Assembly (NCBI GenBank): GCA_039589195.1 | Contig: JBDHHV010000002.1 | Coordinates: 1,126 to 65,125, forward strand | Length of the DNA stretch: 64,000 bases | Direction: 5' to 3' | Source: Gemmatimonadota bacterium | GTDB taxonomy: Bacteria > Gemmatimonadota > Gemmatimonadetes > Palauibacterales > Palauibacteraceae | Part shown: positions 16,463 to 56,370 of the stretch, one piece after another | Position numbering within the stretch: the stretch's first letter is position 1 | How the letters are laid out: the number at the start of each line of letters is the position of its first letter | Program-made: the position numbers and the translations under genes | The notes under the pieces: model-generated | Seen by the model: only the letters and a program-made list of their open reading frames with translations | Databases searched by the model: none | What the model was told of the DNA's origin: nothing

Positions 16463-16709
16463 ACCGGCAACTCTCCAAGAAGTCATGACTCCGGACGTCG
16501 CGCCTCTGGAGGGCAAGCCCGGTGCCCTATACATCGGCACTCGGTTCTTCACCGTAAGCCGTTGGCGCGATTGCACTTTCCGCAACGATTGACATTCGTG
16601 CACACCGCAGGGACTACCAGGTGCGTGTGCAAAGAATGACGAAACGGCAAGGACGATCAGGGATCCTGGCCGGCTCGGTCTGCCGTCGCGCGCTTCGGCG
16701 GAAGCCGGA

Positions 16710-22126: not shown

Positions 22127-22153
22127 ATGCTCACGAGCCAGTCGCTGGCGCCC

Positions 22154-25927: not shown

Positions 25928-25946
25928 CGGCTGTCCGCGCTCCGGG

Positions 25947-31142: not shown

Positions 31143-31165
31143 CGCGGCGGTCCCGGCTTCCCCGC

Positions 31166-36711: not shown

Positions 36712-37260
36712 TCAACGCAGGGCTTCGACGAAGAGGCTCTCCGCCTCGCGGTTGTCCAACTCGGTGATCCCGGCATGCCCGCATCGCGTCTCGCGGAAAC
36801 CGCACCGCTGCACAAGAGAGAAACCCGCTTGCAGAAGCAACTCCTCGATGAAGTCGTATGTGAACAGCGTCCTCGAGTGGCCGTACCAGATGAGCTGGAG
36901 TACCATCTTGGCACCGATCGCCTTCGCGTCCTCGTCGGGGATGAGGAAATAGTCGGTGTCACCCGCCTCGTAGGCCTGCATGGCACGCTCGAGATCGGGA
37001 AGCGCGAGACGCAGGATCCCGCCGGGCTTCAGCACCCGGCGGAGCTCGGTGAGCACGGGCACGAGATCCGGGTAGGGGATCTCCTGCAGTGCGTGGATGG
37101 AGACCGCGTAATCGATGTTCGCGTCCGGTAGCGGCAATCCGTCCTTGACGTCGCACGCGTGCTGGATCCCGGGACCCTGCTTCGCGTCCGAGTTGATCCA
37201 GCCCGGCTCACCATGGGCACCGCACCCCCAGTTGAGTCGACGGACCGGCGAGCTCGTCAT
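36712..37260 (-). CDS. Class I SAM-dependent methyltransferase. Start reassigned to the ATG overlapping the upstream stop (ATGA).
   Basis: LNWGCG(A) motif I and LKPGGILRL post-I/II motifs. ~180 aa. Confidence 0.7.
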   Translation of the reverse strand: MTSSPVRRLNWGCGAHGEPGWINSDAKQGPGIQHACDVKDGLPLPDANIDYAVSIHALQEIPYPDLVPVLTELRRVLKPGGILRLALPDLERAMQAYEAGDTDYFLIPDEDAKAIGAKMVLQLIWYGHSRTLFTYDFIEELLLQAGFSLVQRCGFRETRCGHAGITELDNREAESLFVEALR

Positions 37261-38309
37261 CGAGGCCCCATGTCCAGCAGGACAGCGGCGTTCAGGGCGG
37301 TGGTCAACCAGTCCGTGCGGTGCTCGTGCGGAGGGGTCCAATCCGCGCCCCAACCCAGCCACTGGACCGCGACGATCAGCCGACAGGCCTGAAGACTCGA
37401 CTCGAAGGTGGCCCGGTCCGTTCGATACTCGGTCGGCAACGCCTCACGGTACGCAGCCGCGATTCGATCGCGCGCGGGCTCACTCCAATCTCCGGCGGTC
37501 AGGGCCGCCAGGTCGAAGAGCCCGGGGCCGAAGCCGGCGAGCTCCCAATCGACTGGCCGGACGACAGCCGACCCCCGCTTCTCTTCGAGCAAGACGTTCG
37601 AGGGATAGAAGTCACCATGTATGAGGGTCCGGGGGAGCTGGAGGACGAAGTCGACCGCCCGGAGGTAGGGTCCCGCGAGTCGCTCGAGGGCGCGCCGCGT
37701 CCCCTTTTCCGCGCGCGCGCTGGCGAATTGGCAAGCACGAGAGTACCAACCTCGCAGCAACCGCGGCGTATATTCCAGAAGCCGTGCGGCGCGGCAGGCC
37801 ACCTGAAAGCGCGTGATGGCCTGGCCTCTCGCGTGAAAGCCCGCGAGCCAGGCCGCGACTTCCTCCCAGCGCTCGATCGCCTCGAACTGGTATAGCTCAC
37901 GACCACGTATCCGCTCCAGGAGGAGCCATGAGCCGGGGGTCGCCCCGCGCGCACGCACGACCCCATAAAGGAATGGGACGTCCGGCTCCCGGTCCGCGAG
38001 CAGCGCGCGGTAGACCAGCACCTCTCTCATGCCATCGTACACATGAGTGGGCTTGCCATCGGATCGATCGGCGAGCGATCCGCCGACATCGATTCGTTTG
38101 AGCATCAGAGGCAGCGTGGATCCATCGGCTAGCTCGCCTTCCGCCTCGAGCAGGGTGTGGGTCGTGGCGTAGCGCGACCGTCGCCACCGAAGGCCGGCCA
38201 TTCGCGGGCGTCGTCGGTCCCGCCCCAGCGTCTCCGCGATCGCGAGGGCGAAATCCGTGTCGTCCGTGCCCGGGAGTCCGGGGCCGGGTGACGACGTGGC
38301 GGACGTCAA
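37257..38309 (-). CDS. Phosphotransferase (APH/choline-kinase-like protein kinase fold) family protein
   Basis: HGDFYPSNVLL (HGDxxxxN catalytic loop) and VDWELAGFG (D-W-E). ~350 aa. Confidence 0.65.
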   Translation of the reverse strand: MTSATSSPGPGLPGTDDTDFALAIAETLGRDRRRPRMAGLRWRRSRYATTHTLLEAEGELADGSTLPLMLKRIDVGGSLADRSDGKPTHVYDGMREVLVYRALLADREPDVPFLYGVVRARGATPGSWLLLERIRGRELYQFEAIERWEEVAAWLAGFHARGQAITRFQVACRAARLLEYTPRLLRGWYSRACQFASARAEKGTRRALERLAGPYLRAVDFVLQLPRTLIHGDFYPSNVLLEEKRGSAVVRPVDWELAGFGPGLFDLAALTAGDWSEPARDRIAAAYREALPTEYRTDRATFESSLQACRLIVAVQWLGWGADWTPPHEHRTDWLTTALNAAVLLDMGPR

Positions 38310-39460
38310 GCGATCCCCACCCGGCCCAACAGAGCCGTGAGAACGCTGTCCGAATCGAAGTGGCTCCGCGCGAGCGCACGGGCTGCGCGGGAGTGTGGCC
38401 TGTAATCGCGGCGGATGGCTCGAAGTCCCTCCGCCGCTTCATCCAGGGTCGTGAAAGCGCACAACCCGGCACCCGTCGGCAGGTAGCGCGAGAAGCCGGT
38501 CTCCTGCGCGAGGACCGGCCGGCCCGATGCCAGATAGCAGACGCTCCGATCGGAGAACCAGCCGCACGCGGCTTCGACGTATCCGGACTTGGCGACGCCG
38601 AGCTCGGCGAAGGAGTCGACGACGAAGCGGCGGTAGCGGTCGGGAGTACCAGCCGACTGCGTGGGATCCACGAGGACCCAGCCGCCGGCACGCAGCGAGG
38701 CCAGGTCGTCTCGTTCGTCGGGGTGTACGGTGAGCGCCAGCCGAACGCGCTCGTCCGCCAGTCTGGGCAGCTCCATCAGGGGACGGAGCGCGTGCGCCTT
38801 CTGCCCATAAAAAACGCCTTCGTGTCGAATCGAACCGTATGCGCGCCAGTTGGCCACCGTCGTGAACGACGCCTCGGCGGGCTCGCGGTTCGACTCGACG
38901 AGCGGCCAATACGGGAGCACCACGGGGGGTAGCGTCGGGATCCAGCTCCGCCCGCACGTCGGTATCGTGCAATCCGCCTCGGCCAGACCCGGCCCCACCG
39001 TGGCGAAATGCGTGTGACCCTCCAGCCCCAGATCCAGCCCCTCCACGGCGCTCCACAGCTGCGTGAAGCCGGGGTCGAGATCCACGTACAGGCGGGTGGG
39101 GATCGGTCCGGTGATCTCCCGGTCGCGGAGGACGCCGGACAGGTTGACGAGCAGGTCGGCGCGTCCGGCCGCGTCGATCACGCTCTCGTACGGCATGCCC
39201 ATGGCCCTGCGAGCGCCGGGGACGAGCAGCGCGGCCCTTCCGGCGAGACCGAAGCGTCGGCAGACACGGCCGAAATACTCCTCGACCGCCGGCCCGGACA
39301 CGGAGTCATCGAGCGGCTCGACGAGGGTGACCTCCCAGCCAAGCCGCCGGAGCCCCAGGGCGTATTGAAGCACCGCCCAGGTAGCGCCACCCTGCCCCGG
39401 GGTCCCGGCGAAGCGGCCGCTCACGATCGCCGTCCGTCGGCGAGACGAGGCGGGGATCAA
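38306..39460 (-). CDS. Divergent GT-B fold (GT4-like) glycosyltransferase, paralog 1 of 3 tandem copies. TTG start with GGAGAGGG Shine-Dalgarno.
   Basis: N-terminal Rossmann half with G-rich loop (GTPGQGGATWAVLQYALGLRRLGWEV). C-terminal half GWFSDRSVCYLASGRPVLAQETGF resembling the GT4 EAMA-G-PV donor-binding region. Paralogous to 39457..40635 and 40643..41884. Confidence 0.5.
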   Translation of the reverse strand: MIPASSRRRTAIVSGRFAGTPGQGGATWAVLQYALGLRRLGWEVTLVEPLDDSVSGPAVEEYFGRVCRRFGLAGRAALLVPGARRAMGMPYESVIDAAGRADLLVNLSGVLRDREITGPIPTRLYVDLDPGFTQLWSAVEGLDLGLEGHTHFATVGPGLAEADCTIPTCGRSWIPTLPPVVLPYWPLVESNREPAEASFTTVANWRAYGSIRHEGVFYGQKAHALRPLMELPRLADERVRLALTVHPDERDDLASLRAGGWVLVDPTQSAGTPDRYRRFVVDSFAELGVAKSGYVEAACGWFSDRSVCYLASGRPVLAQETGFSRYLPTGAGLCAFTTLDEAAEGLRAIRRDYRPHSRAARALARSHFDSDSVLTALLGRVGIA

Positions 39461-40635
39461 GCCGCCCTCTCCACGGGTCCGACGCGATCGAGAAACTCGC
39501 CCAGCACTCGGCTCGAGTCCAGATAGTGCTCGGCGAGCGCCCGGGCGGCGCTCGAATGCTCATCGTAGTCCCGCCGGATCCGGGCAGCGCCCGCGACGGC
39601 GTCCTCGAGGGTCCGGAACGTGAGCAGGCCGGCGTCGGTGGGCAGGTCCGAGAACCCGGTGTCCTCCACCAGCGCGGGTCTACCGGAGGCCAGATAATGG
39701 GCCGTCCGGTCGCTGAACCACCCGCTTAGCGTCTCGACGTAGATCTCCTGGGCGGCGGAGAACTCCGCATCGGATGCTTGGATGTAGCTCCGGTACGTGG
39801 CCGGATCCGGCACCACATCCCGCGGATCCACCAGCGACCATCCGTGCGTCCGCAGGGCATGCAGATCGACCGAGTCGCCGGGGTCGATCTGGAGGGCGAT
39901 CTCGAACCGCCCCTCGGCTCGTCTGGGGACGTCCAGGTACTCGCGAAACCGGTGCGCTTTCAGGCCCAGTCGACGGCCATCCCGGTGGAGAGAACCGAAC
40001 GCGCCACGCCAGCTCGCGACGGTTGTGAATCGGGGCTCCCGGCCAGCGTATCCGGCGCCCTCGGACGAGGGCCATTCCTCCATGAGCACCGGCGGCCGGA
40101 ATGGCTGCCACGCGAGACCACCGTCGGGTATCGCGCACCCCGCGAGCCCCACGTTGGCGCCCACGGTGAAGAAGGCCGTGTGGTCCCCGAGGCGTCCTCC
40201 GAGACCCTCGTCGTGCCAGAACTGGGTGAAGCCGGGGTCCAAATCGATGTACGCGCGGCGCGGCACGCGAGTCATGAACGGTTCGAGCGTCAGGTGGCCG
40301 CTCATGTTGACGAGCAGGTCGGCGTCGCCCGCCAGGTCGGCCAACTCCCCCGGTCCGAGCCCCGAGACCGGCTGCCCGTCTCGGGTCACGAGCGCTGACC
40401 GCTCCCCCAGTCCGAACTCACGCATCACGGCGTCGAAGTGGGCGCGGTGACCGCTGTCGCTCGGCGCGCACCGCTCGCCCAAACCGTCGGTGCATAGGCC
40501 CGGATCGATCTGCTCGAGGAAGTACACTTCCAAGCCGAGGCGCGCGAGACCGACCGCCCAGGTCATGCGAACCCACGCTTCGCCCGCGTTTCCGAGCTTG
40601 TTCGCCACCGCGCCCGCCACGATCGCGATCGTCAT
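39457..40635 (-). CDS. Divergent GT-B fold glycosyltransferase, paralog 2. Start reassigned to ATG at 40635; the track ORF extension overlaps the upstream gene.
   Basis: MTIAIVAGAVANKLGNAGEAWVRMTWAVGLARLGLEV...GWFSDRTAHYLASGRPALVEDTGF. Same architecture as its neighbours. Confidence 0.5.
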   Translation of the reverse strand: MTIAIVAGAVANKLGNAGEAWVRMTWAVGLARLGLEVYFLEQIDPGLCTDGLGERCAPSDSGHRAHFDAVMREFGLGERSALVTRDGQPVSGLGPGELADLAGDADLLVNMSGHLTLEPFMTRVPRRAYIDLDPGFTQFWHDEGLGGRLGDHTAFFTVGANVGLAGCAIPDGGLAWQPFRPPVLMEEWPSSEGAGYAGREPRFTTVASWRGAFGSLHRDGRRLGLKAHRFREYLDVPRRAEGRFEIALQIDPGDSVDLHALRTHGWSLVDPRDVVPDPATYRSYIQASDAEFSAAQEIYVETLSGWFSDRTAHYLASGRPALVEDTGFSDLPTDAGLLTFRTLEDAVAGAARIRRDYDEHSSAARALAEHYLDSSRVLGEFLDRVGPVERAA

Positions 40636-40642
40636 ACGCGAC

Positions 40643-41884
40643 TCACCCTGGTCCGACCGTGATGGGGGGTTGGGACGTCGGTCCTTGAGGATCGATCGGG
40701 CCCTGCGGAAGCGAAGCCGCCATTTCGTCCAGCAATCGTGCGAGCACGCGGTCGCTGTCGAGGTAGGCCTCGGCCAGCTCGCGGGCGGCACGCGCGTGGC
40801 GCTCCCAGTCGGCGTCGATCTGCGCGACGCCCACCACCGCACCTTCGAGGTCCGCGAACGAGAGCAGTCCCTCACCGCTCGGAAGAGCCGCTTCGAAGCC
40901 CGTGTCCGATGCGAGCACGGGTCGCCCACTGGCCAGATAGCAGGCCGACCGGTCGCTGATCCAGCCGCTTCGGGTCTCCGTGTAGAGCGCCTTCGCGACC
41001 ATCAACTCGGCACGCGAGCCGGCGATGAAGCCCCGATAGGCGTCGGGCCCGCCCGCGACGGTCAGCGGGTCCTGGATGGTCCACGCCGATTCGCTCAGGC
41101 GAGCGAGATCCGCTCGTTCGTTCGGGTGGATGTCCAGCGCGACGCGGAACTGCTGGCCTGTCCTCGAGGGGAGAGAGAGGAGCTCGCGGAATGCGTGCGC
41201 GCGCAGACCGTACGTATGGCCTTCGAACTCCAGCGAGCCGCTGTCGCCGCGCCATGTCGCGACCGTGGTGAAGCCGTCGCCCGGGTCCACGACCCGGGGC
41301 CACTCCTCGAGCACCACCGGGGGTAGCGTCGGAATCCACTCAACTCCGCACGCTGGGATCGTGCAGCCGGCGGACCCGATGCCCGTGCCGACGGTGACGA
41401 AGGCATCGTGCCCGGTGAACAGGTCCACGAGCCCCAGTTGGTGCCACATCTGGCCGAACCCGGGATCCAGGTCGACGAACACTCTGCGCTCGGGAGCGGA
41501 AAGGACCTCCTCGTCCGTCCAGTAGCCCATGAAGTTCAGGAGGAAGACCGAGCTCAGCGCATGGTCGATGACCGAGTCGCGCGACCGACCCAGATAACCC
41601 TCACCCTCGCACAGAAGGGCCCATGCGTCCGTCAAGCCGAAACGGTCCATGCAACGAGCGAAGTAGGCCAACTGGACCGAGTAGCGCGGCGCGCACGGGT
41701 GACCGGCGGCGTCCGTGCACATGTCCCGCTCCAGCCGGTCCAGAAACAGTACGTCCCAGCCAAGCCTCCGCAGCCCCAGCAGGTACTGGAGAAAGACCCA
41801 CACATGGCCGGCGCGGCGGTACCGCTGCGCGACGCCGCCTGCGACGATGATGCGTCCCCTGCTCCGAGCGACGCGGCTGCTCAT
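40643..41884 (-). CDS. Divergent GT-B fold glycosyltransferase, paralog 3
   Basis: RIIVAGGVAQRYRRAGHVWVFLQYLLGLRRLGWDV...GWISDRSACYLASGRPVLASDTGF. Confidence 0.5.
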   Translation of the reverse strand: MSSRVARSRGRIIVAGGVAQRYRRAGHVWVFLQYLLGLRRLGWDVLFLDRLERDMCTDAAGHPCAPRYSVQLAYFARCMDRFGLTDAWALLCEGEGYLGRSRDSVIDHALSSVFLLNFMGYWTDEEVLSAPERRVFVDLDPGFGQMWHQLGLVDLFTGHDAFVTVGTGIGSAGCTIPACGVEWIPTLPPVVLEEWPRVVDPGDGFTTVATWRGDSGSLEFEGHTYGLRAHAFRELLSLPSRTGQQFRVALDIHPNERADLARLSESAWTIQDPLTVAGGPDAYRGFIAGSRAELMVAKALYTETRSGWISDRSACYLASGRPVLASDTGFEAALPSGEGLLSFADLEGAVVGVAQIDADWERHARAARELAEAYLDSDRVLARLLDEMAASLPQGPIDPQGPTSQPPITVGPG

Positions 41885-41893
41885 GCGCGGGCC

Positions 41894-47269: not shown

Positions 47270-47273
47270 TCGG

Positions 47274-48887: not shown

Positions 48888-51427
48888 CGACGCCCCTCGC
48901 GGTTGGCATGACTCTCCGGCCGGGGACCGGCCTCCATCAGTGGACCGGTCAGACGGTACAGCACACCGGTCCCGGGCTCCTCGGCCACGACGCACGCGTG
49001 GCGACGGAGCCGCTCGGCCAGCTCTTCGTAGTGCGACAGCCACCAGAGGGACGTGGCCGGGAGCAGCAGATAGCCCGCGCCCCCGCGCCGAAGCTCTTCG
49101 AGGTGCGTAATCGCGTCCCACGCCGTAGCCGGGTGGTGGCCGGCGTACCCGCCGCCGGGGGCCTGCGGGAAGTGGGCGGCACGGTGGCTCTGGAGCTCCA
49201 CGAGCGCCTCATCGCCGCGGCTCGCCACCAGCACCATCTCCCGCTCTGGCACGTGCCGGCTCACGAGATCCAGCGCATGCGCCCGCTGCCGCTCGTAGTC
49301 GGGGTTCGATCGTCGGCCGTAAGGCGGCGGCGGCTCACCCCATTTCCGCTCGAAGCGGGCCCGGTTCTCGCGCAGCAACGCGTCGTACTCGCCTTCTCCG
49401 ACAAGCGCCCCGAACGATCCCTTGTCGAAGTGGTGCATGAACACGTCTTCGGCGGACACGAGTCGGAGACCTGCTCCCCGGATCCGGTGGCAATAGTCGT
49501 CGTCCTCGAGGGTGCCGAGTCCAAAGCGCTCATCCAGGGCCCCGATCCGCTCCCAGGTCGAGCGGCGCAGCGCGAAGCAGAACATCGTGAGAGACGGGAT
49601 GTCCCGCGGTTCCCCCGCGTGCCGCTCCCGGCGTTCCCGGGCGAACCGCATCAAGTCGCCGTATGTGTCGTACGAGGCGTCGATCTGCGCCTCGTTGCAG
49701 ATCCGGTTCGTGACCGGCCCCACCGCTCCGACCGACGGATCGGACAGGTGCCGCAGCAGGTCGCCCAGCCACCAGCGTGGAGGGATCGTGTCGTTGTTGA
49801 GCAGGACCAGGGCGGGGGCGCGAGACATCTCCATCCCGAGGTTACACGCGGCCGCGAACCCGAGGTTGCTGTCGGACAGCCGGACCCGGACCCTCGGGTG
49901 CGAGCGGGCGAGATCGCGCAGGTATGCCGGCGTGTCATCCGTGGACGCGTTGTCGAGGACGATGAGCTCGTAGTCCCCGATTTCCGTGTTCGCGAGCAGG
50001 CTCTCCAGACAGAGTCGGGTCAGGAGGAGCCCGTTGTGCGTGACGACGATCACGCTCGCCCGTGGCTTGACCGATGGCTCGTCCCCGGGTGGAAGCAGCG
50101 CACCCGACGACCCTGGCCACGGGCGGTCGAGCACGAGCCGGGCGCTCTCCTCCGAGAGCCGAACGGGATTCCGTGACACCGGCTCGAGCACCAGCTCGCG
50201 GGGGAATGCGTCGACGTTCTTCAGCACGGGGCGCACGCGCGGGTGGGCGGTAGCGGCTCCAATCTGGTCCAGCATGTGTCCGAGCACTCGACCCGCGTCG
50301 AAGTACTCGTTCGCGATGTCCTCGGCGGCTCGCGCGTGCCCGTCGTAGTCAGAGCGTATCGCCTCGAGCGCCGCCCTCGCTTCGTCGAGCGTGTCGAACG
50401 CGAACAGACCGAGGCCCGTGGGGAGAGTCTGACCGAGACCCGTATTTTGGGTGATGACGGGGCAGGCGGCAGCCAGGTACGTGGCGCTGCGGTCGCTGAA
50501 CCAGCCGCTTCTGAGCCTTACGTTCTGGTCCTTCGCGACCGTGAACTCCGCCCGTGAACCCTGAATGTAGGCGCGGTACGCGTCGAGATCCGCGGAGAGC
50601 GGCCCTGCATCGCGAACCGCCCAGCCCACCGCTTCGAGGAGGTCTCGGTCCTCTCGCTCGACACCCGAGAGCGCAAGCTCGAACGAATCCGGGGCAGCCG
50701 ACGGCAACTCGCGTACCTTCTCGAATTGCTCGTGCTTGCTCCAGCGATACAGCTCGCCGCGGAACCGGATGTCGCGCCATTGCCGCCAGCTGGCGATCGT
50801 CGTGATGAGCTCGCGCTCACTCCTCGCTTCCGGCTCTGTGCGCCACAGGTCGAGCACCACCGGTTGCCGGGTGGGCCGGAAGCGGAATGCGGACGAGTCG
50901 GGCACCCCACAGTCCCCGTTCCCGAGGTTCTCCCCGAAGCTGAAGTGGGCGAAGTGGCTCGCGAGGAATCGCGCCGTGCTCTCGAAGCGGTGGAAGAGCT
51001 CGAGCTGCGGGAGCACCGGGTCCGTCTCCACATAGACGAGGCGATCCCGGTCGTGTCCGGGCCGCGGTGTCGTGCCACCGTGCAGGTTCAGGATCAGCGA
51101 GGCCCGGTCGTAAAGCCGGGCCAGCTCTTCCGGCGTCATCCCGAGGCAGTCACCGTCCGCGTGTAGCGCCTCGTACGCCCACCGATCCCCAAAGCCGAAG
51201 CGGCTCAAGTGACGGTCCAGGTATGCGGCGGCCCCACGCACGCCGAAAGGATCGCCCGGCTTCACGAATGCGGAGGGTGTGCGGGCGTGCGCCTCGACGT
51301 AGTACACGTCGTACCCCAACCGGCGCAGACCGATGAGGTAGTGCAGCGTCTGCCACACCACCCCGGCGACCGGCATCGGTGTCATCATCCCCAGGACGAC
51401 GGCGCGTGGGCGCCCGAGCAGTCTCAT
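48884..51427 (-). CDS. Three-part fusion: divergent GT-B domain (4th paralog) + GT2 domain + conserved C-terminal DUF domain
   Basis: N-terminus AGVVWQTLHYLIGLRRLGYDV...GWFSDRSATYLAAACPVI. Middle SVIVVTHNGLL...DNASTDDT...GTLEDDDYC. C-terminus SRGD...HFPQAPGGGYAGHHPATAWDAITHLEELRRGGAGYLLLPATSLWWLSHYEEL. Confidence 0.7.
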   Translation of the reverse strand: MRLLGRPRAVVLGMMTPMPVAGVVWQTLHYLIGLRRLGYDVYYVEAHARTPSAFVKPGDPFGVRGAAAYLDRHLSRFGFGDRWAYEALHADGDCLGMTPEELARLYDRASLILNLHGGTTPRPGHDRDRLVYVETDPVLPQLELFHRFESTARFLASHFAHFSFGENLGNGDCGVPDSSAFRFRPTRQPVVLDLWRTEPEARSERELITTIASWRQWRDIRFRGELYRWSKHEQFEKVRELPSAAPDSFELALSGVEREDRDLLEAVGWAVRDAGPLSADLDAYRAYIQGSRAEFTVAKDQNVRLRSGWFSDRSATYLAAACPVITQNTGLGQTLPTGLGLFAFDTLDEARAALEAIRSDYDGHARAAEDIANEYFDAGRVLGHMLDQIGAATAHPRVRPVLKNVDAFPRELVLEPVSRNPVRLSEESARLVLDRPWPGSSGALLPPGDEPSVKPRASVIVVTHNGLLLTRLCLESLLANTEIGDYELIVLDNASTDDTPAYLRDLARSHPRVRVRLSDSNLGFAAACNLGMEMSRAPALVLLNNDTIPPRWWLGDLLRHLSDPSVGAVGPVTNRICNEAQIDASYDTYGDLMRFARERRERHAGEPRDIPSLTMFCFALRRSTWERIGALDERFGLGTLEDDDYCHRIRGAGLRLVSAEDVFMHHFDKGSFGALVGEGEYDALLRENRARFERKWGEPPPPYGRRSNPDYERQRAHALDLVSRHVPEREMVLVASRGDEALVELQSHRAAHFPQAPGGGYAGHHPATAWDAITHLEELRRGGAGYLLLPATSLWWLSHYEELAERLRRHACVVAEEPGTGVLYRLTGPLMEAGPRPESHANREGRR

Positions 51428-53295
51428 CGGGCACTTCCGACGCTGCGGACGAGCTCCGGCCCCGCCTCGGACTCGGGCTCCTGGCCCGCCGACGCCTCCG
51501 GCCCCGGATCATGCTGCGGTGCCGATCGGGCATGACCGGCCTGTACGTCGTGCAGCTCCCGGAAGAGACCGTCACGCGCGAGCAATTCCTCGTGGCTCCC
51601 CTGCTCGACGATTCGGCCGCCGTCCATCACCAGGATCCTGTCCGCGTTCCGGATCGTGGACAGGCGGTGCGCTATCATGAACGTCGTGCGCCCGAGCATG
51701 AGCCGTTCGAGCGCGTCCAGGATCACGCCCTCGGTACGCGAGTCGATCGAGGAGGTCGGCTCGTCGAGGATCAGGATCGGGGCGTCGCGCAGGAACGCTC
51801 GCGCGACCGAGATGCGCTGGCGCTCGCCGCCCGACATCTGGACTCCTCGCTCACCGAGCGCGGTATCGTACCCCTTCGGAAGCCGCTCGATGAACCCGTG
51901 CGCGTTGGCGGCCCTGGCGGCCTCGACCACTTCGTCCATGGATGCGGACAGGCGCCCGTAGAGGATGTTGGAGGCGATCGTCCCGGAGAAGAGGAGGGGC
52001 TCCTGGAGCACGATGCTGACCTGGTCTCGCAGCGAGGCCAGCGTGATCTGACGGATGTCAGTCCCGTCCAGGAGGATGTGCCCCTCACCGGGCTCGTAGA
52101 ACCGTGGGATGAGGCTCACGAGCGTGGTCTTGCCCGCGCCCGTGGGCCCGACGACGCCGAGCTTCTGGCCGGGCTCGGCGGTGAACGAGATCCCCTCGAG
52201 CGTCCGGTCGCGGCCGTCGTAGCTGAAGCCGACATCTTCGAACACGACCTCGCCACGAGCGCGCGGGATCACCAGGGCCCCGGGCAGATCACGGATCTTC
52301 GGCTCCTGATCCAACACCTTGTACGCGATCTCGAGGCTGATGAACCGATCCTGGAACGACCCGATCGTGTTCGCGATCGCTTCGAGCGGGCCGTAGATGG
52401 AGGCGATGTAGGCGAGCACGACCAGAAGCTCGCCACCCGTGAGCCGTCCCTCGGTGATCTGCCACACGCCGAACCCCAGCACGACGGCCGCCCCCGCCGC
52501 CGTGGTCGTGTTCACGATCAGCGAGAACAGCGTCTGGCGGACGGTGACCTTCACGCGCTCATCGATGGCACGCTTGCCCTGCTGGCGAAAACGGCGGAAC
52601 TCGTGGCTCTCGCGCCCGAAAGCCACGATGACCCGCATCATCGAGATCGCCTCGTGTACGATCGAGAGCGACTCGCCCTCGAGTCCCTTCACCTTCCGGA
52701 GTCGCTCCTGGATGTGGGTCATGTAATAGCCCACGGACCAGTACAGGAACGGCACCACGACCAGCGAAAGGAGGGCGAGCTGGTGGTGGATCATCCAGGT
52801 CAACCAGAACATCCCGATCAGCGTGAGGGCGCTCTGCGCGAGGGGCAGCACGGCCATCACCAGACCGGCGGCCGCATCCGCCTGGAAGTTGATCGCGTAG
52901 ATCAATCCTCCCGCGCGACGCTTGTCGTGGTAGGCCATCTCGAGCCGCTGCGCGTGCTGGAACAGGTCGCTACGGAAGTTCAGCACCATCCCCTGCTCGA
53001 GGCGCGTCTGCACGTAGCTGTTCAGGACCGAGAAGCCGTTCTGGGCCAGGGTGAGCCCGAACCCGCCCAGGACCACGGCGCCGATGAGGAGGAGCTTCTG
53101 CTCCATCAGGGGCTGGAGCACCGGTGCCACGATGCCGGGTGGCGGGTGCGAGCCCAGCACGCTGTCGAACAGGATCTTGAGCGGCCACGGCTCCAGCAGC
53201 GCGAGCAGTGACACGCCGATCGTGAGGACGCCTGTCACGACCGCCGAGCGCCAGAACGGCTTCAGATATCGCAGCACGCGGAGGAAGTACTTCAC
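51424..53295 (-). CDS. ABC transporter permease/ATP-binding protein (MsbA-like type I exporter). GTG start.
   Basis: 6-TM domain. Walker A GPTGAGKTT. Signature LSGGERQRISVARA. Walker B ILILDEPTSSID. Confidence 0.9.
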   Translation of the reverse strand: MKYFLRVLRYLKPFWRSAVVTGVLTIGVSLLALLEPWPLKILFDSVLGSHPPPGIVAPVLQPLMEQKLLLIGAVVLGGFGLTLAQNGFSVLNSYVQTRLEQGMVLNFRSDLFQHAQRLEMAYHDKRRAGGLIYAINFQADAAAGLVMAVLPLAQSALTLIGMFWLTWMIHHQLALLSLVVVPFLYWSVGYYMTHIQERLRKVKGLEGESLSIVHEAISMMRVIVAFGRESHEFRRFRQQGKRAIDERVKVTVRQTLFSLIVNTTTAAGAAVVLGFGVWQITEGRLTGGELLVVLAYIASIYGPLEAIANTIGSFQDRFISLEIAYKVLDQEPKIRDLPGALVIPRARGEVVFEDVGFSYDGRDRTLEGISFTAEPGQKLGVVGPTGAGKTTLVSLIPRFYEPGEGHILLDGTDIRQITLASLRDQVSIVLQEPLLFSGTIASNILYGRLSASMDEVVEAARAANAHGFIERLPKGYDTALGERGVQMSGGERQRISVARAFLRDAPILILDEPTSSIDSRTEGVILDALERLMLGRTTFMIAHRLSTIRNADRILVMDGGRIVEQGSHEELLARDGLFRELHDVQAGHARSAPQHDPGPEASAGQEPESEAGPELVRSVGSAR

Positions 53296-56009
53296 CCGAC
53301 TGCCTCTCGGGGGTCGGTCTTGGGCGAGGGGTCCGAGTCCGCATGCCCCGGTCGGTCGGTCTCCGGGCCATCGTGCCTCGGTCCCGAGTCACGTGCGACC
53401 GCGGGTGTCGTGGCCATCCGCCCGTTGGACTCGTACCGCGGCCGGCCTGAGACCGTGGCGCCGCCGGTGGTCCGGACGTCGGCATCGTGCATCGCGTCGA
53501 GCGCTTCGAGGACGGCGGTCATCGCGCCGCCACACTCGAGAACGATCCGTACGGCGAACAGTACGAACGCGAGAGCGAGCAGGACCCCGGCAAACACCGC
53601 ACCCGCCGCGAGCGCCCACCCGGTGAGAGCCGCGAGGAGACCGAGCGACCCCGAGCCGGGACGCGACAACGTCGGTAGCAGTCGCACACGCACGAACTGC
53701 TGACCGGCCCCATGCTCCTCGGTGCACGTGCGAATCCTGACGCGTCCGGATGGACCACCCTTGACCAGGAGATCCCAGTTATCGAAGGGGCCACCCCGCA
53801 GTACCGCGGCGCGCATCCGTCGGAGTACGAACTCGAGACGCGCGAGTCGCTCGGGAGGGGGTGACCACCCGTCGCTCCACAGGAAGACGGTCTGCGGTTC
53901 GGGCAGTACGAAGCGCCTCCGGGTTCGCAGTCGCCACGGCGTCAGACCATGGCGCAATCGCCCCCGCAGGCGGGCGGCGGGCTGCAGGAGATGTAACGCG
54001 ACCGTCAGGAGCGGCCTGACGAACCGGTCGCGGGGACTCGATCCTCTCGAGTCGTCGCGCGCGTGCGCCGCGCCCGCGATCGCCTGCGGAAGCACCGCGC
54101 CCGCCGCCAGGACGAGAAGTGGCAGCGTCCATAGCAGGGGTCGCCACGCGAGCCCGAGCGCGCTGAGCCCGGCGAGCGCCAGGATCACGAGGTACCATTC
54201 CGGCGTCGAGACGAGGGAGCTCAGGAAGCCGGGCGACGGAGGGTGGTACGCCTGGAAGGGGGCTTCGCCCCAGATTCCGTGATAGATCCGCCCACGACGA
54301 CCCAGACCGAACAGCCGTGGCGCCCCGTACACACGCCCGCCCCACGTCACGTGCCCGGCCGAGTTGTACTTCTCCGGCCACTTCTCCTCGAGCAAGGCCT
54401 CCGCGCGCCCGTACCCGGACTGCTGCCGCCAGTATGTCCGGACGGAGTCACGCGCGTGGTGCCATACCATCGCGGCCGGACTGAAGCCGAGCGTGTGTCC
54501 GCTCTCCTGTAGCCGCCAGCAGATGTCCACGTCATCGCCCGCTACGCGGAAGCGTGGGTCAAAGCCATCCACCTCGTCGAGCGCGCTCTTCCGGAAGGCC
54601 ATATTGCAGCCGGGGATGTGCTCCGCCACCTGATCGGACAGCAACACGTGGATCGGGCCGCCGGGGGCATTCGCCACGCAGCCGGCCACGAAACCGTCCC
54701 CGGGAGGCGCCACGTTGGGCCCGCCGGCGCCCGCGAATGTTTCGTCGGCGAGCGTCATGGACAGATACGTGAGCCAATCGGAGTCCGGTCGCGCATCGGC
54801 GTCGGTGAACGCGACGATCTCGCCCGTCGCCGCTTCGATGCCCGCATTGCGGGCTTTGCTCAGCCCCTGGTTGGCCGTCCGGATCAGCTGGACGGGGAAT
54901 TCGGCGGCGATGTCGGGCGTCGAGTCCGTCGAGCCATCGTCGACCACGATCACCTCGTAGTCCGGATACTGGATCGCGGTCGCTCCCTCGAGGCAATCGC
55001 GCAGCGTGCCCGCGGCGTTGAACGCGCAGATGACGATGGAGATGCGAGGGCGTTTCTCCCCCTCGATCTCGGGTGTCGCGGCAAAGGCCCGTCGCACGCT
55101 GCGGAGAGCGGGCTTGGGCTTCCGGCACTCGTCGGTCACCCCGAATCCCCACGCCTCGACATCGTGCCCGCCCGTGTGCCACTCGTCGGTCCATGAGAAC
55201 ACGAACGTCCCCGCGCACCCTCCCCGGCGCGCGGCCCGGATCTGGGCATCCAGCCCGCAGGCCTGCCCGAACTCGCCGTGCGAGCGGCTGTCGAGCCCGA
55301 GCTCTCCCATGAGGAGTGGACGGTCGCCCGCGAGGTTGTGAAGGCGCGCGAGGTAAGCCGAGAGACGCTCCGCCGATTCCAGATAGACGTTGAAGCACAG
55401 GAGATCGAGGAAGTCGAGGTGGAGATACTCCGTGGATGGGTAGTTCACGTACGTGACGAGCCCGTCGGGGTCCTCGGCCTTGGCCAGGTCGTATAGCGAT
55501 CGGATGTGCCGCTCGATGCGCTCGCGACCGCTCCAGCGGACGATCTGCGCGGGTGTCTCGTTTCCCACTGCGTAGCACAGGACGGCGGGGTGCCCTGCGC
55601 ACGCCCGCACGGCCCGGCGCACTCGCCCCTCGATCCGGGCGACGCGGCCCGGCTCGTCGAGGAAGGCCACGTGTTGCTCCCAGGGGATCCCGACCATGAT
55701 GCGGAGTCCCTGCCGTGCGGCTGCGTCGAGCGTCCAGCGTGGGGGCGGCGTGTACGTGCGGACGGCGTTCGCCCCCGCCTCGGCCATGTGGGCGAAGTCA
55801 CGCTCGACCATCTCTCGCGGTGGAAACGGCTCCCCGTCACGGTTGCGGCGGAACGTCCCATAGGTGAAGCCGCGGACGAAGAGCTTCTCGTCCCCCGCGT
55901 ACAGGAACTTGCCGGCCGCGCGCGGTCGCGGAGCCGCCTCGGCCGGTGCCTCCCTGCCGGTCGGGACGGGTCCGCCCGCGCGGCCGTTGATGGTTGGTCC
56001 GGGGTGCAT
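53292..56009 (-). CDS. Fusion protein: clan GH-A glycoside hydrolase-like TIM-barrel domain + GT2 glycosyltransferase + C-terminal multi-TM region. First gene of the operon.
   Basis: N-terminal FVRGFTYGT...AVGNETP (NEP acid/base-like). Middle ISIVICAFNAAGTL...VIVVDDGSTDST...DADA...GFDPRF...CWRL GT2 motifs. Hydrophobic helices after residue ~600. Confidence 0.68.
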   Translation of the reverse strand: MHPGPTINGRAGGPVPTGREAPAEAAPRPRAAGKFLYAGDEKLFVRGFTYGTFRRNRDGEPFPPREMVERDFAHMAEAGANAVRTYTPPPRWTLDAAARQGLRIMVGIPWEQHVAFLDEPGRVARIEGRVRRAVRACAGHPAVLCYAVGNETPAQIVRWSGRERIERHIRSLYDLAKAEDPDGLVTYVNYPSTEYLHLDFLDLLCFNVYLESAERLSAYLARLHNLAGDRPLLMGELGLDSRSHGEFGQACGLDAQIRAARRGGCAGTFVFSWTDEWHTGGHDVEAWGFGVTDECRKPKPALRSVRRAFAATPEIEGEKRPRISIVICAFNAAGTLRDCLEGATAIQYPDYEVIVVDDGSTDSTPDIAAEFPVQLIRTANQGLSKARNAGIEAATGEIVAFTDADARPDSDWLTYLSMTLADETFAGAGGPNVAPPGDGFVAGCVANAPGGPIHVLLSDQVAEHIPGCNMAFRKSALDEVDGFDPRFRVAGDDVDICWRLQESGHTLGFSPAAMVWHHARDSVRTYWRQQSGYGRAEALLEEKWPEKYNSAGHVTWGGRVYGAPRLFGLGRRGRIYHGIWGEAPFQAYHPPSPGFLSSLVSTPEWYLVILALAGLSALGLAWRPLLWTLPLLVLAAGAVLPQAIAGAAHARDDSRGSSPRDRFVRPLLTVALHLLQPAARLRGRLRHGLTPWRLRTRRRFVLPEPQTVFLWSDGWSPPPERLARLEFVLRRMRAAVLRGGPFDNWDLLVKGGPSGRVRIRTCTEEHGAGQQFVRVRLLPTLSRPGSGSLGLLAALTGWALAAGAVFAGVLLALAFVLFAVRIVLECGGAMTAVLEALDAMHDADVRTTGGATVSGRPRYESNGRMATTPAVARDSGPRHDGPETDRPGHADSDPSPKTDPREAVG

Positions 56010-56370
56010 GCGCGCCGAACAGCCTCCCGTAAACGGCGGACGAAACTGCGGTTACATCGCGAGCTGTGGGGGGTGTTGAGCAGCACGTATGCCAGCCGCG
56101 GTATCGAGCCCCGACCAGGCGCGGAGCTGCGGTCCCGGATCCGCTCGGCCACTGGATTCGGGGCGGGCGGGGCGTGAATCAGGAGCGCCGGAAGTCAGAT
56201 CCGGTTAGGGTCTTAGGGACGATTCGGGCTCCGGCGGCGTCCCCTTCGGCACGTGGCCACGGGAAGGTGTTCGGCCACCGTGGCGCAGTCGGACGCGTCG
56301 CGGCGTGCGACGCGTCCGTGGAGGGTGGGTGCGTCACGGTTTGGCTCGGGTGTGAAAAAAGTGGCGCCTG

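Follow-up and report, generated by a model that had tools for sequence, protein, structure and literature searches.

Gene organization and predicted function of a 13-gene glycan-assembly operon with an MsbA-type exporter from a Gemmatimonadota bacterium

Organization of the gene cluster

The locus lies in a 64,000-nucleotide stretch of DNA from a soil bacterium of the Gemmatimonadota, referred to here as the window. The ORF listing and an analysis of start codons and junctions give thirteen consecutive coding sequences on the minus strand, running from 56009 to 36712, with a GC3 of 0.78–0.90 in the coding frame. They are listed below with the flanking features.

56010..56370, minus strand: non-coding leader of 360 nt 5′ of G1, presumed promoter region
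53292..56009, minus strand: G1, 905 aa, clan GH-A glycosidase-like domain, GT2 and two TM hairpins
51424..53295, minus strand: G2, 623 aa, ABCB/MsbA-type (type IV) half-transporter, 6 TM and NBD
48884..51427, minus strand: G3, 847 aa, family-X GT-B (1 to ~400), GT2 (455–690, Pfam), C-domain (702–827)
47274..48887, minus strand: G4, 537 aa, GT2 (1–240), linker, C-domain (392–506)
46514..47269, minus strand: G5, 251 aa, helical heptad-like N-terminal stretch (~30–90), C-domain (114–240)
45189..46517, minus strand: G6, 442 aa, GT4 (GT-B; Pfam Glyco_trans_1_4, Glycos_transf_1, Glyco_transf_4)
43231..45192, minus strand: G7, 653 aa, unannotated N-terminal ~360 aa, then GT2 (369–607)
41894..43234, minus strand: G8, 446 aa, unannotated N-terminal ~135 aa, then PAPS-type sulfotransferase (139–421)
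40643..41884, minus strand: G9, 413 aa, family X, unannotated GT-B
39457..40635, minus strand: G10, 392 aa, family X
38306..39460, minus strand: G11, 384 aa from a TTG start (alternative GTG at 39424, 372 aa), family X
37257..38309, minus strand: G12, 350 aa from a TTG start (alternative ATG at 38201), APH/choline-kinase-type small-molecule or sugar kinase
36712..37260, minus strand: G13, 182 aa, small class-I SAM methyltransferase, motif I LNWGCG
35793..36515, minus strand: YdjC-family carbohydrate deacetylase, 240 aa (Pfam YdjC, E=6e-49)
32309..35950, minus strand: large envelope protein with signal-anchor, SPOR domain and DUF5916 (Pfam, hydropathy, N-terminus)
28658..32227, minus strand: rmlB-rmlA-rmlC-rmlD, complete dTDP-L-rhamnose pathway directly downstream (Pfam, ORFs)

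The 12 junctions of the operon comprise nine 4-nt stop/start overlaps (four ATGA, three GTGA and two TTGA) and three gaps of 4, 9 and 7 nt, which reproduces the layout of the initial annotation (gaps of at most 9 nt, nine overlaps). Both TTGA overlaps, G10 to G11 and G11 to G12, depend on TTG starts, which leaves seven of the nine overlaps secure and the other two plausible. For G11, a gene caller on the JGI contig placed the start at GTG 39424, which would remove the first β-strand although it is conserved among the paralogs; for G12, the homology to its best ortholog starts at residue ~35, beside ATG 38201. No promoter or terminator signals above shuffled expectation were found inside the operon, nor was a sigma-70 consensus found in the 360-nt leader. 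Since the minus strand carries most genes between 18 kb and 64 kb of the window, a shared strand alone is not special, and the meaningful evidence for an operon is the dense overlaps together with the conserved synteny described below. The junction analysis thus backs the earlier view of a real, tightly coupled glycan-assembly operon, whose thirteen genes are presumably read as a single transcript.

The original boundary of 36712–56009 is too tight for the locus, which probably continues through the YdjC gene, the large envelope protein and rmlBACD to 28658. The YdjC gene begins 196 nt 3′ of G13; its product has no signal peptide and matches ChbG and HpnK in NCBIfam, both under the cut-off. 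YdjC genes are present in cassettes L082, L084, L085 and L088 of other genomes, and the gene belongs to the conserved system although it lies outside the coordinates first marked. The large envelope protein, with a probable start at ~35812 overlapping the YdjC stop, is a possible outer-envelope partner. The block X-X-APH-MT-YdjC-large outer-membrane-type protein recurs in L088, where a different 1000-aa OMP β-barrel protein occupies the same position.

Pfam and NCBIfam searches confirmed nearly all of the earlier domain calls. Among the large high-GC3 ORFs of the window, none showed a Wzx, Wzy, Wzz, Wza, KpsMT or phosphoglycosyltransferase domain, in agreement with the first reading of a single MsbA-type exporter without these components or an initiating transferase. 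Signal peptides and TM segments are absent from all enzymes except G1 and G2, and every enzyme is predicted to be cytoplasmic.

The GH–GT2 fusion protein G1 and the exporter G2

G1 consists of a GH-A TIM-barrel glycosidase-like domain (residues ~29–310), a GT2 domain (~320–545) and two TM hairpins (605–648 and 783–849) with a small α/β domain (706–781) in between. Neither a signal peptide nor a TM segment separating GH from GT2 was seen by hydropathy or in the AF2 model (pLDDT 81). The protein matches GH2_C and GT2 in Pfam, and GH157 (9fz9) and PcManGT (6yv7) among PDB sequences. With Foldseek, the best matches of the modelled GH part are the retaining β-glycanases GH157, GH2, GH5_18 and GH158, which the domain resembles, and those of the GT2 part are PcManGT and BcsA. 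Both predicted active sites are conserved among 85 homologs: N150/E151, E236, D358, D403xD405, D492/D493/D495 and Q530xxY533 are invariant in all 85, and Q529 is conserved in 84. Its conserved Glu pair notwithstanding, the GH domain could alternatively be a binding or regulatory module. The G1 family is present in at least 10 phyla, with 51–64% identity across phyla.

G2 (Pfam ABC_membrane and ABC_tran) is joined to G1 by a 4-nt GTGA overlap. Its best NCBIfam matches are MsbA (top), a glucan ABC exporter and HepA, all under the cut-off, with PglK among the weakest ABC matches; its best half-transporter matches in the PDB are Sav1866 and MsbA. In these comparisons G2 did not specifically resemble Cgt/ChvA more than MsbA or multidrug exporters. 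Precedents for glycan export by fused MsbA-type exporters are Cgt/ChvA/NdvA, HepA and PglK. In 45 of 62 genome loci, G1 has a full-length MsbA-type ABC gene within 10 kb, mostly directly downstream, and a natural G1–ABC fusion protein (P0063) exists, whose topology is compatible with an even number of TM helices.

The MsbA match of G2 also fits a glycolipid pathway, in which the GT2 domain of G1 would attach sugar to a lipid of the membrane, be it diacylglycerol, ceramide, hopanoid or polyprenyl phosphate; the head group would be extended and decorated by the other enzymes, and G2 would flip the completed glycolipid to the outer leaflet. G1 does match Glyco_transf_21, the ceramide glucosyltransferase family (E=1.3e-7), and weakly DPM synthase, ArnC and PpgS; YdjC is related to HpnK, a hopanoid GlcNAc deacetylase, and a Binatia cassette contains GT-C (PMT_2) genes. 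However, these lipid-type matches are far weaker than those to MftF, PgaC and EpsD-type enzymes, conserved lipid-synthesis genes are absent nearby, the fused glycosidase gains no clear role, and nine GT domains would make an unusually large head group. We consider this explanation improbable.

Family X and the repeated C-terminal domain

BLAST paralogy shows that the N-terminal part of G3 and the proteins G9, G10 and G11 all belong to one unannotated GT-B family of ~387 aa, here called X, of which the operon has four copies. The paralogy of the three tandem GT-B proteins had been recognized before; the total of three had not included the copy in G3. Family X has thousands of members. The AF2 model of G10 (pLDDT 92) has a GT-B fold, and the top fold match of the family is ManT, an enzyme of methylmannose polysaccharide.

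A second domain of ~125 aa is repeated at the C-termini of G3, G4 and G5, again by BLAST paralogy, and has no Pfam match. G5, in which no catalytic domain was detected, gave no Pfam or NCBIfam match at all; a profile search returned 3841 representative clusters.

Tailoring enzymes

G8 matches Sulfotransfer_3 and Sulfotransfer_1 in Pfam and carries a 5′-PSB-like GRSGST and a 3′-PB-like RDFRD motif; its PDB matches, TPST and CurM ST, are weak. G12 matches Pfam APH and has HGDxxxxN and a D-W-E loop, and G13 matches Methyltransf_11 and Methyltransf_25. Orthologs of G12 adjoin G1 in 8 of the 62 loci, and in several phyla the APH kinase is found again, but not the methyltransferase. The catalytic motifs are intact in all three enzymes. 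Their identities, as proposed initially, are therefore borne out by Pfam and motifs, while the sulfation, phosphorylation and methylation of the glycan are predicted from the intact motifs only.

A conserved core with variable additions

Comparison of gene neighbourhoods, a check that the initial annotation had proposed, showed that the G1–ABC–X synteny is kept across phyla (62 loci), with family X within 10 kb of G1 in 48 of them. The cluster is not a one-off. Its core is G1, G2 and a family-X GT-B, often with YdjC, and is conserved and horizontally spread; the first genes of the operon represent this core of a widespread enzyme–exporter system. The remaining genes, namely the GT2s, GT4, sulfotransferase, APH-type kinase, methyltransferase and repeated ~125-aa domain, are strain-variable tailoring, and the tailoring set differs already in the closest relative (84% G1 identity). 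Self-contained cassettes include X-CE4-ABC-G1-X-YdjC, G1-ABC-X-YdjC... and G1-ABC alone, and where minimal cassettes have an X gene beside the ABC or YdjC gene, it is most similar to the N-terminal part of G3. The system is present in monoderm lineages without LPS (Solirubrobacterales, Chloroflexota). No published study or curated family covering it was found, in keeping with the earlier remark that the pathway was not recognizable as a described one.

It is highly improbable that the genes form no single system, being either unrelated co-directional carbohydrate genes or an intracellular, non-exported polysaccharide pathway into which an unrelated multidrug ABC pump has been inserted. Genes in this part of the window do lie mostly on the minus strand, G2 is generically ABCB-like, and the top fold match of family X is ManT. 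Against this stand the nine 4-nt overlaps, the synteny across phyla, the natural G1–ABC fusion and the paralogous domains common to G3, G4, G5 and G9–G11.

A stronger rival is a classical ABC-dependent polysaccharide (O-antigen, capsule or wall glycan) built on undecaprenyl-PP, with a WecA- or WbaP-type initiator encoded elsewhere. G1 would then be a conserved membrane-associated adaptor or backbone GT, G2 would act like PglK and Wzk in flipping the lipid-linked glycan, and the kinase, methyltransferase and sulfotransferase would cap the non-reducing end, stopping elongation and licensing export, for which WbdD of E. coli O9a is the precedent (PMC3482155). A GT repertoire that changes from one close relative to another, GTs with several domains and helical linkers, and a kinase adjoining a methyltransferase, as here and in L088, are each typical features of O-polysaccharide loci of the undecaprenyl-linked, ABC-dependent kind, and rml genes adjoin. 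Initiating transferases are often unlinked to the locus, as in E. coli O8/O9. The mismatch with canonical layouts noted at first holds for the absences in the window, but is compatible with this pathway, since an initiating transferase may be encoded elsewhere in the genome. The window comes from a single contig of a metagenome-derived genome, the rest of which could encode a phosphoglycosyltransferase for initiation, a ligase or an outer-membrane exporter. However, no phosphoglycosyltransferase, Wzx, Wzy, Wza or ligase was found in eight Pfam-annotated neighbourhoods of G1 cassettes either, and there is no Wzm/Wzt. G12 and G13 have no detectable sequence similarity to WbdD, and the kinase does without the methyltransferase in several phyla. 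In addition, G1–ABC-only cassettes exist, the system occurs in LPS-less monoderms, PglK is among the weakest matches of G2, and a cytoplasmic glycosidase fused to a GT is left unexplained. On balance, we regard the classical pathway as possible but unlikely.

Proposed assembly and export of the glycan

We think it probable that the products of the operon assemble a heavily decorated glycan on the cytoplasmic face and send it out through a dedicated MsbA-type ABC exporter, as a strain-specific elaboration of the conserved core. In architecture, G1 and G2 are like Cgs, the synthase of cyclic glucans, and the ABC exporter Cgt that serves it. Cgs primes itself, has its GT and glycan-processing domains all in the cytoplasm, and controls the length of the glucan so that it fits Cgt (PMC10901819). 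Among the readings in which our general model holds, such a carrier-lipid-independent synthase-plus-exporter logic is slightly favoured over a polyprenyl-linked one.

The framework of this model is given by the order of the genes, the domains and folds of their products, the conservation of catalytic residues, the predicted cytoplasmic location of every enzyme, and the linkage and fusion of G1 with the ABC gene. Within it, the substrate sugars and the sequence of the reactions are putative, as are the function of the GH domain, the formation of a complex and what becomes of the product once exported. G1, held in the inner membrane by its two helical hairpins, would be the founding synthase and trimmer: its cellulose-synthase-like GT2 domain would make a short β-linked backbone or primer from a nucleotide sugar, and its GH-A domain, acting in cis on the same cytoplasmic side, would cleave or transglycosylate the chain for length control or release. 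Further sugars would be added by the family-X enzymes (the N-terminal part of G3, and G9–G11), the GT2 domains of G3, G4 and G7, and the GT4 enzyme G6, probably including L-rhamnose supplied by the adjacent rmlBACD. YdjC would take off N-acetyl groups, G8 would sulfate the glycan with PAPS, G12 would phosphorylate it and G13 would methylate it, while G5 and the C-domains shared by G3, G4 and G5 may hold the enzymes together. The finished molecule would be handed directly from G1 to the G2 dimer and then exported.

Organization of the operon

Thirteen consecutive minus-strand genes (G1–G13) run from 56009 to 36712, as delineated by the ORF table, the GC3 frame analysis and the analysis of starts and junctions, with a coding-frame GC3 of 0.78–0.90. 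Nine of the 12 junctions are 4-nt stop/start overlaps (ATGA four times, GTGA three times and TTGA twice) and the other three are gaps of 4, 9 and 7 nt, which exactly reproduces the layout and the overlap count of the initial annotation. The two TTGA overlaps are less certain, as they depend on TTG starts. The start is ambiguous, TTG versus GTG or ATG, at 39424–39460 (G11) and 38201–38309 (G12). The alternative start of G11 is GTG at 39424, as in the gene call on a JGI metagenome contig with the same sequence; it would drop the first β-strand, which is kept in all paralogs. The homology of G12 to its best ortholog begins at residue ~35, beside the ATG at 38201. A 360-nt non-coding stretch lies directly upstream of G1, and consensus scans for internal promoters and terminators gave counts at or below the shuffled expectation, being uninformative at 68% GC in a non-model organism. 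The composition of the window is uniform (~68% GC), and a protein identical to one of its proteins is present on JGI metagenome contigs.

Nearly all domains named in the initial annotation were recovered by Pfam and NCBIfam.

Genes of the operon and their domains
G1, 905 aa: GH2_C-like TIM barrel, GT2 and hydrophobic C-terminal region
G2, 623 aa: ABC_membrane and ABC_tran
G3, 847 aa: unannotated N-terminal half, GT2 and unannotated tail
G4, 537 aa: GT2 and unannotated tail
G5, 251 aa: no Pfam or NCBIfam hit
G6, 442 aa: GT4
G7, 653 aa: unannotated N-terminal 360 aa and GT2
G8, 446 aa: unannotated N-terminal 135 aa and sulfotransferase
G9–G11, 384–413 aa: Glyco_trans_1_2, at most sub-threshold
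G12, 350 aa: APH-type kinase
G13, 182 aa: small class-I SAM methyltransferase

The operon contains nine glycosyltransferase domains, in G1, G3 (two), G4, G6, G7 and G9–G11. G8 scores 51 bits against Pfam Sulfotransfer_3 (cut-off 27), also matches Sulfotransfer_1, and carries the PAPS-binding motifs GRSGST (5′-PSB) and RDFRD...S (3′-PB), which assigns it to the PAPS-dependent sulfotransferase superfamily with a predicted activity. G12 has the motif HGDFYPSN and a DWE loop. In G13, Pfam covers only the C-terminal half of the profile; a truncated gene was nevertheless ruled out by motif I, LNWGCG, located near the N-terminus (residues ~11–16 of 182).

In a hydropathy scan of the operon, transmembrane (TM) segments were found only in G1 and G2, which leaves the remaining enzymes predicted as cytoplasmic. 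The glycosyltransferases and tailoring enzymes have neither signal peptides nor TM segments, and the soluble domains of G1 form one continuous stretch with its GT2 domain, which uses NDP-sugars. The glycan is thus predicted to be completed at the cytoplasmic face before export.

Predicted structure of G1

Topology, folds and catalytic competence are predictions throughout. The AF2 model of G1 (pLDDT 81) consists of a TIM barrel (residues 29–310), a GT-A domain (320–545), a TM hairpin (605–648), a long helix with a small α/β domain (659–781) and a second hairpin (783–849). Neither hydropathy nor the model reveals a signal peptide or a TM segment between the GH and GT2 domains, and both domains would therefore be on the cytoplasmic side, where the nucleotide sugars are.

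The best matches of the barrel, by Foldseek and PDB sequence search, are the GH157 endo-β-1,3-glucanase (9fz9, 9g4n), GH2 glucuronidases, the GH5_18 β-mannosidase and GH158, all of them retaining enzymes of clan GH-A. The GT2 and TM part matches BcsA and PcManGT (6yv7), a minimal cellulose-synthase-like mannosyltransferase. Across 85 aligned homologs, N150–E151 (the GH-A-type acid/base) and E236 (the nucleophile position) of the GH domain are invariant, as are D358, D403xD405, D492/D493/D495, Q530 and Y533 of the GT2 domain. Q529-Q530-x-x-Y533 is a variant of the QxxRW motif, with Q529 kept in 84 of the 85 homologs and replaced by histidine (Q529H) in one. These invariant residues show that both domains are under selection, of a kind that is consistent with catalysis.

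Distribution of G1 and its coupling to the ABC exporter

More than 8,000 homologs of G1 can be detected, and the 120 best have the same architecture and are 56–87% identical over 84–97% of the query. A genome scan gave 327 G1 loci. The best 80 of these belong to Gemmatimonadota, Acidobacteriota, Actinomycetota (Solirubrobacterales, Gaiellaceae), Chloroflexota, Myxococcota, Desulfobacterota, Nitrospirota/Nitrospinota, Gammaproteobacteria, Planctomycetota, Verrucomicrobiota, Chlorobium, Eremiobacterota and Binatia, with G1 identities of 51–64%, one close relative apart; the closest relatives are Gemmatimonadota MAGs, so that the window itself most likely derives from an uncultured member of this phylum. 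Such conservation between phyla and the patchy occurrence of G1 indicate that an enzyme under functional constraint has spread horizontally. A search of the plasmid collection with G1 gave only MftF-like GT2 fragments on archaeal plasmids.

Neighbourhoods were compared for the 62 loci in which G1 is followed by 8 kb of sequence or more, by matching their ORFs to the window proteins within 10 kb of G1. Family X denotes the GT-B family of G9, G10, G11 and the N-terminus of G3 (G3N), and the C-domain is the C-terminal unit shared by G3, G4 and G5.

Features within 10 kb of G1
Family X: 48/62 loci
Full-length MsbA-type ABC gene, usually directly downstream: 45/62 loci
ABC and family X both: 41/62 loci
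C-domain: 19/62 loci
G6-like GT4: 10/62 loci
G12-like APH kinase: 8/62 loci
YdjC: 8/62 loci

A BLAST count of lower sensitivity gave 4/60 loci with a G8-like sulfotransferase and 3/60 with a G13-like methyltransferase. The association of G1 with the exporter extends to the polypeptide itself: a 1,467-aa protein of a Chloroflexia MAG (P0063) is a natural fusion of a G1-type GH-GT2-TM enzyme (its residues 45–853) with the MsbA-type exporter (869–1455). As a Rosetta-stone protein it ties the first two genes of the operon together, and it fits a cytoplasmic C-terminus of G1.

ABC and family X are both missing in ten loci, all from Syntrophobacteraceae or Desulfarculales (L013, L018, L026, L048, L049, L061, L064, L065, L073 and L077), with G1 homologs 51–55% identical. 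In these loci, G1 is either an orphan or has its partners arranged differently. Several of them carry two NBD-only ABC proteins upstream on the opposite strand. A Wzt-like reading of these proteins in Syntrophobacteraceae was set aside; paired, NBD-only, on the opposite strand and ~30% identical to the NBD of G2, they were taken as unrelated.

Cassettes annotated by Pfam
Ktedonobacteraceae: X, CE4 deacetylase, ABC, G1, X, YdjC
Binatia: G1, ABC, X, YdjC, methyltransferase (MT), PMT_2, GDSL, PMT_2
One further contig: G1, ABC, X, X, X, X, YdjC, MT, NodS-like MT, GT2
Thermoleophilaceae: G1 and ABC alone
L088: GT4, GT4, X, X, APH, MT, YdjC, 1,000-aa OMP-type barrel, G1

The gene order of locus L088 matches the block of the window formed by G10, G11, G12, G13, the YdjC gene and the gene for a DUF5916 envelope protein. 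The closest relative, with a G1 84% identical, keeps G1, ABC and X and has a different downstream set, and the tailoring part thus evidently turns over quickly. In the Binatia MAG, two GT-C (PMT_2) membrane glycosyltransferases with the C-domain (L084, 17143–21837) follow the G1-ABC-X-YdjC-MT genes, which hints that the exported product is glycosylated further outside the cytoplasm in some lineages.

Boundaries of the locus

G13 is separated from the next gene by a 196-nt spacer in which no obvious terminator was seen. Three features follow on the same strand, identified by Pfam and, for the last, also from the ORFs.

35793–36515, minus strand: YdjC-family deacetylase, predicted cytoplasmic
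32309–35950, minus strand: 1,200-aa envelope protein with a signal-anchor, SPOR (peptidoglycan-binding) and DUF5916, overlapping the YdjC stop
28658–32227, minus strand: complete rmlB-A-C-D set

The first of these scores 167.7 bits against PF04794 (cut-off 29.7), which places it in the YdjC/ChbG-type carbohydrate deacetylase family, and lies below the ChbG and HpnK equivalog cut-offs. Since YdjC belongs to the conserved system, the functional locus would extend to at least 35793, and it probably reaches 28658, with rmlBACD included. The large envelope protein may be the outer-envelope component of the system; at the same position in L088, between YdjC and G1, there is a different 1,000-aa protein, a CarboxypepD_reg and OMP_b-brl_4 barrel.

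Upstream of the 360-nt leader lie a cytochrome-c/TPR gene and then a LytTR response regulator and His_kinase (PF06580) pair (57373–59354, minus strand). The closest relative (L001/L002) has the same flanking permease, two small ORFs and cytochrome-c/TPR gene, but lacks the LytTR/His_kinase pair, which may be a strain-specific regulator of the locus.

Family X and the C-domain

The initial annotation had recognized three GT-B paralogs, G9–G11. The fold assignment is correct, and the paralogy reaches further: by all-against-all BLAST and alignment, residues 1–400 of G3 are paralogous to G9, G10 and G11 with 35–47% identity, giving four family-X copies in the operon. With G10 as the query, 3,749 proteins were significant, nearly all ~385–390 aa long and ~54% identical to G10, and these are named "hypothetical protein" and almost all lack a Pfam domain. 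No NCBIfam model and no Pfam GT4 domain matches the family, PF13524 being hit only below threshold. The AF2 model of G10, based on a 36-sequence alignment, has a pLDDT of 92 and a pTM of 0.92. When it was compared with the PDB by Foldseek, GT4-type GT-B enzymes were matched with probability 1.0 and TM ~0.6 at an identity of only 10–12%, including ManT (mycobacterial methylmannose polysaccharide), Tll1591 (an α-1,2-glucosyltransferase), BshA, MshA, HepE and PimA. As judged from the model, family X is a GT-B-fold family, formally uncharacterized: the GT4-like fold is seen by AF2 and Foldseek, whereas the curated GT4 sequence family is not matched. In minimal cassettes, the X gene adjoining the ABC or YdjC gene is closest to G3N. 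Sequence comparison suggests that the "core" X of the window apparently became fused to GT2 and the C-domain, giving G3.

A second paralogy, which like the G3N copy had been seen only in part, concerns the C-terminal ~125 residues of G3, G4 and G5, which are 36–45% identical by all-against-all BLAST and alignment.

46517–46930, minus strand: C-domain of G5
47277–47714, minus strand: C-domain of G4
48887–49324, minus strand: C-domain of G3

Its consensus is ...VVSRGD..L..L.G..A.HFPQ..DG.YAGHHP....AI.HLE.LR..G..YLL.P....WW..HY... When a profile built from these copies was run against 1.84 billion cluster representatives, 3,841 proteins scored E ≤ 1e-3, of which 1,177 reached E ≤ 1e-30. Many of the hits contain 2–8 copies in tandem, with lengths of up to ~2,000 aa, and the domains often follow helical segments and are fused to glycosyltransferase domains (GT4, GT2, GT-C). 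No significant Pfam match was obtained, and a PDB profile search gave one marginal hit, UvrA (E = 0.006). We infer that the C-domain could be a scaffold or an oligomerization module.

Comparison with known export systems

Bacterial glycan export is usually taught as three routes, namely Wzx/Wzy, Wzm/Wzt-type ABC and synthase. By Pfam, no sizeable ORF of the window encodes Wzx, Wzy, Wzz, KpsMT or an initiating transferase, which upholds what the initial annotation had stated, and Wza is also absent. The same is true of Wzx and Wzy/Wzz-PCP domains in eight related neighbourhoods annotated by Pfam, where phosphoglycosyltransferase, Wza/OPX and O-antigen ligase domains were likewise absent; neither the 64-kb window nor the flanks (±10 kb) of the eight homologous loci encode an initiating transferase of the WecA/WbaP type. 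The sole ABC protein of the operon is a fused type IV half-transporter and not the two-component type V Wzm/Wzt or KpsM/KpsT. Synthases are defined by a multi-TM channel of their own and by a Q(Q/R)xRW motif, whereas G1 has only two TM hairpins and the variant QQxGY, with no PilZ, TPR/porin or periplasmic partner. By the defining tests of each, the locus falls outside Wzx/Wzy, Wzm/Wzt or KpsMT, synthase, Cgs/Cgt and NdvB, and it is clearly of the general kind in which cytoplasmic assembly is followed by ABC export. Fused ABCB-type exporters have glycan precedents in Cgt/ChvA/NdvA, with HepA and PglK as NCBIfam model names.

The closest mechanistic precedent is Cgs/Cgt, in which a membrane-anchored enzyme with glycosyltransferase and glycan-cleaving or transglycosylating domains, all cytoplasmic, passes its product to a dedicated MsbA-type half-transporter with no lipid carrier and no Wzx/Wzy (PMC10901819). 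Cgs is anchored by a small TM domain and primes itself by autoglycosylation, and its length-control domain is proposed to adapt the glucan to Cgt, the ABC exporter (PMC10901819). However, Cgs consists of GT84, a cyclase and a GH94 phosphorylase in ~2,800 aa, whereas G1 is a GT2 joined to a GH157/GH2-like clan GH-A domain in ~850–900 aa. G2 scores 303–397 bits against the chvA and glucan-exporter models (cut-offs 585–733), the 397 bits being for the 'glucan ABC transporter' model, and is thus below the ChvA family cut-off; many additional glycosyltransferases and sulfo-, phospho- and methyl-tailoring enzymes are also present here. The likeness is one of architecture, and self-priming or cyclization by G1 would be by analogy alone.

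In domain order (GH17-GT2), the closest system is NdvB/Orphan, the pseudomonad cyclic β-1,3-glucan synthase, which like G1 has an N-terminal clan GH-A domain, a BcsA-like GT2 domain and TM helices in one polypeptide (PMC10237404); the best fold matches of the GH domain of G1 are also β-1,3-glucanases, GH157 and GH158. However, GH17 of NdvB is modelled as periplasmic with a TM region before GT2 (PMC10237404), whereas both domains of G1 are predicted to be cytoplasmic with no TM segment between them, and no GH17 was found among the Pfam, NCBIfam, PDB and Foldseek matches. Unlike G1, NdvB is not coupled to an ABC exporter and possesses a multi-TM channel of its own.

In the WbdA/WbdD/Wzm-Wzt system of E. 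coli O9a and with WbbB of Klebsiella O12, the glycan is likewise finished in the cytoplasm before ABC export, and multidomain glycosyltransferases, helical spacers, a kinase and methyltransferase, and high strain variability are shared features (PMC3482155, PMC11231755). Here, in contrast, the exporter is a fused type IV ABCB protein with neither Wzm/Wzt nor the Wzt carbohydrate-binding module, no initiating enzyme is linked, and G1 has no counterpart there. Membership of G12 and G13 in WbdD was rejected, as they are separate proteins whose PDB sequence searches gave no WbdD at E ≤ 1; a functional analogy is possible.

In the Nod-factor pathway (NodC/NodB/NodH/NodS/NodIJ), a membrane GT2 enzyme makes a free oligosaccharide in the cytoplasm, which is deacetylated, sulfated from PAPS, methylated from SAM and then exported by an ABC transporter. 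A weak NodC match of G1, the NodS-like methyltransferase of one cassette and the deacetylation of chitobiose by YdjC relatives recall this pathway. However, the locus has no NodA acyltransferase, YdjC stands in place of the CE4 enzyme NodB, NodIJ is another ABC type, and there are far more glycosyltransferase domains and a fused glycosidase. Nod-factor synthesis may serve as a functional analogy.

Exopolysaccharide (EPS) loci with glycosyltransferases and sulfotransferases are known as wps-1 of Actinoplanes missouriensis (PMC13390465) and the cyanobacterial synechan locus xss (PMC8205485). The former also encodes a SAM methyltransferase, a kinase-like protein and a glycoside hydrolase, and is Wzx/Wzy-dependent with GH26 (PMC13390465); an EPS locus that unites sulfotransferase, methyltransferase and kinase therefore has a recent precedent. 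Neither locus is reported to have a G1-type fusion, family X or an MsbA-type exporter (PMC13390465, PMC8205485).

A search of open full text, provisional in that many subscription papers lay outside its scope, found no published description of the G1 family, GH-GT2-ABC cassettes, family X or the C-domain, in line with the initial annotation, in which the pathway had not been recognized from earlier descriptions. Literature on YdjC-linked clusters, GH157/158 fusions, 9FZ9/9G5G/9G4N, sulfated EPS and Gemmatimonadota EPS clusters, also in open full text, gave analogies only. The parts that appear to be new are the G1-ABC-X(-YdjC) core, the cytoplasmic glycosidase-GT2 fusion, family X and the C-domain.

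Proposed mechanism

G1 and G2 are genetically linked and sometimes physically fused, and the two conserved active sites of G1 are predicted to be on the same side of the membrane. The catalytic domains are all predicted to be cytoplasmic, G2 is the only export component, and G1-ABC can occur alone. We propose that G1 would be the founding enzyme, with its GT2 domain making a β-linked chain or primer and its GH-A domain cutting or transglycosylating this chain for size control or release. The family-X enzymes and the other glycosyltransferases would extend or branch the chain, YdjC would remove N-acetyl groups, G8, G12 and G13 would add sulfate, phosphate and methyl groups, and G2 would export the finished molecule.

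The main rival is a classical undecaprenyl-linked, ABC-dependent polysaccharide, with the initiator encoded elsewhere and the kinase and methyltransferase acting as WbdD-like terminators (PMC3482155). It would account for the strain variability, the multidomain glycosyltransferases with helical linkers and the adjacent rml genes; however, the initiating enzyme is consistently missing in nine neighbourhoods, the system is present in monoderm phyla and in cassettes of G1-ABC only, G12 and G13 have no detectable WbdD similarity, and PglK is among the weakest ABC matches. A membrane-glycolipid pathway is a minor alternative, suggested by the GT21 and DPM-synthase-like matches of G1, the MsbA-like G2 and the HpnK-like YdjC. 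The full form of our proposal, that G1-ABC-X(-YdjC) is an as yet undescribed, horizontally mobile, lipid-carrier-independent route in which a synthase-trimmer sizes or releases a nascent β-glycan and passes it straight to the MsbA-type exporter, with X and the C-domain as new, dedicated accessories and with a sulfated, phosphorylated, methylated and rhamnose-containing oligo- or polysaccharide as the product in this genome, is tentative and rather doubtful as a whole.

If true, it would be a rare case of glycan sulfation outside cyanobacteria, and it could add a second case, after Cgs/Cgt, in which a glycan goes from synthase to ABC exporter free of a carrier. The G1-ABC family has thousands of members across phyla, in soil and sediment lineages, both monoderm and diderm, none of which was found to be characterized, and finding the product of the G1 system would give a function to the large hypothetical families X, C-domain and G1. 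Sulfated glycans from bacteria are rare and interesting for biotechnology, and the variants bearing a sulfotransferase are candidates for producing them.

Other genes of the window

In a 1,194-aa protein (5355–8939, plus strand), a spermidine-synthase-like domain comes after roughly a dozen TM segments; by Pfam, this protein is no polymerase of the Wzy type. A long minus-strand ORF (15296–17536) overlaps another on the plus strand (16593–17879), both with high GC3; the plus-strand one is clearly a DUF819 membrane protein, and the 746-aa minus-strand ORF is therefore at least partly spurious. On the same strand as the glycan locus, two adjacent ~1,300-aa paralogs with FG-GAP/VCBS repeats and ASPIC/UnbV, followed by an S9 prolyl oligopeptidase, occupy 18317–26170 (minus strand) and are large secreted or surface proteins.
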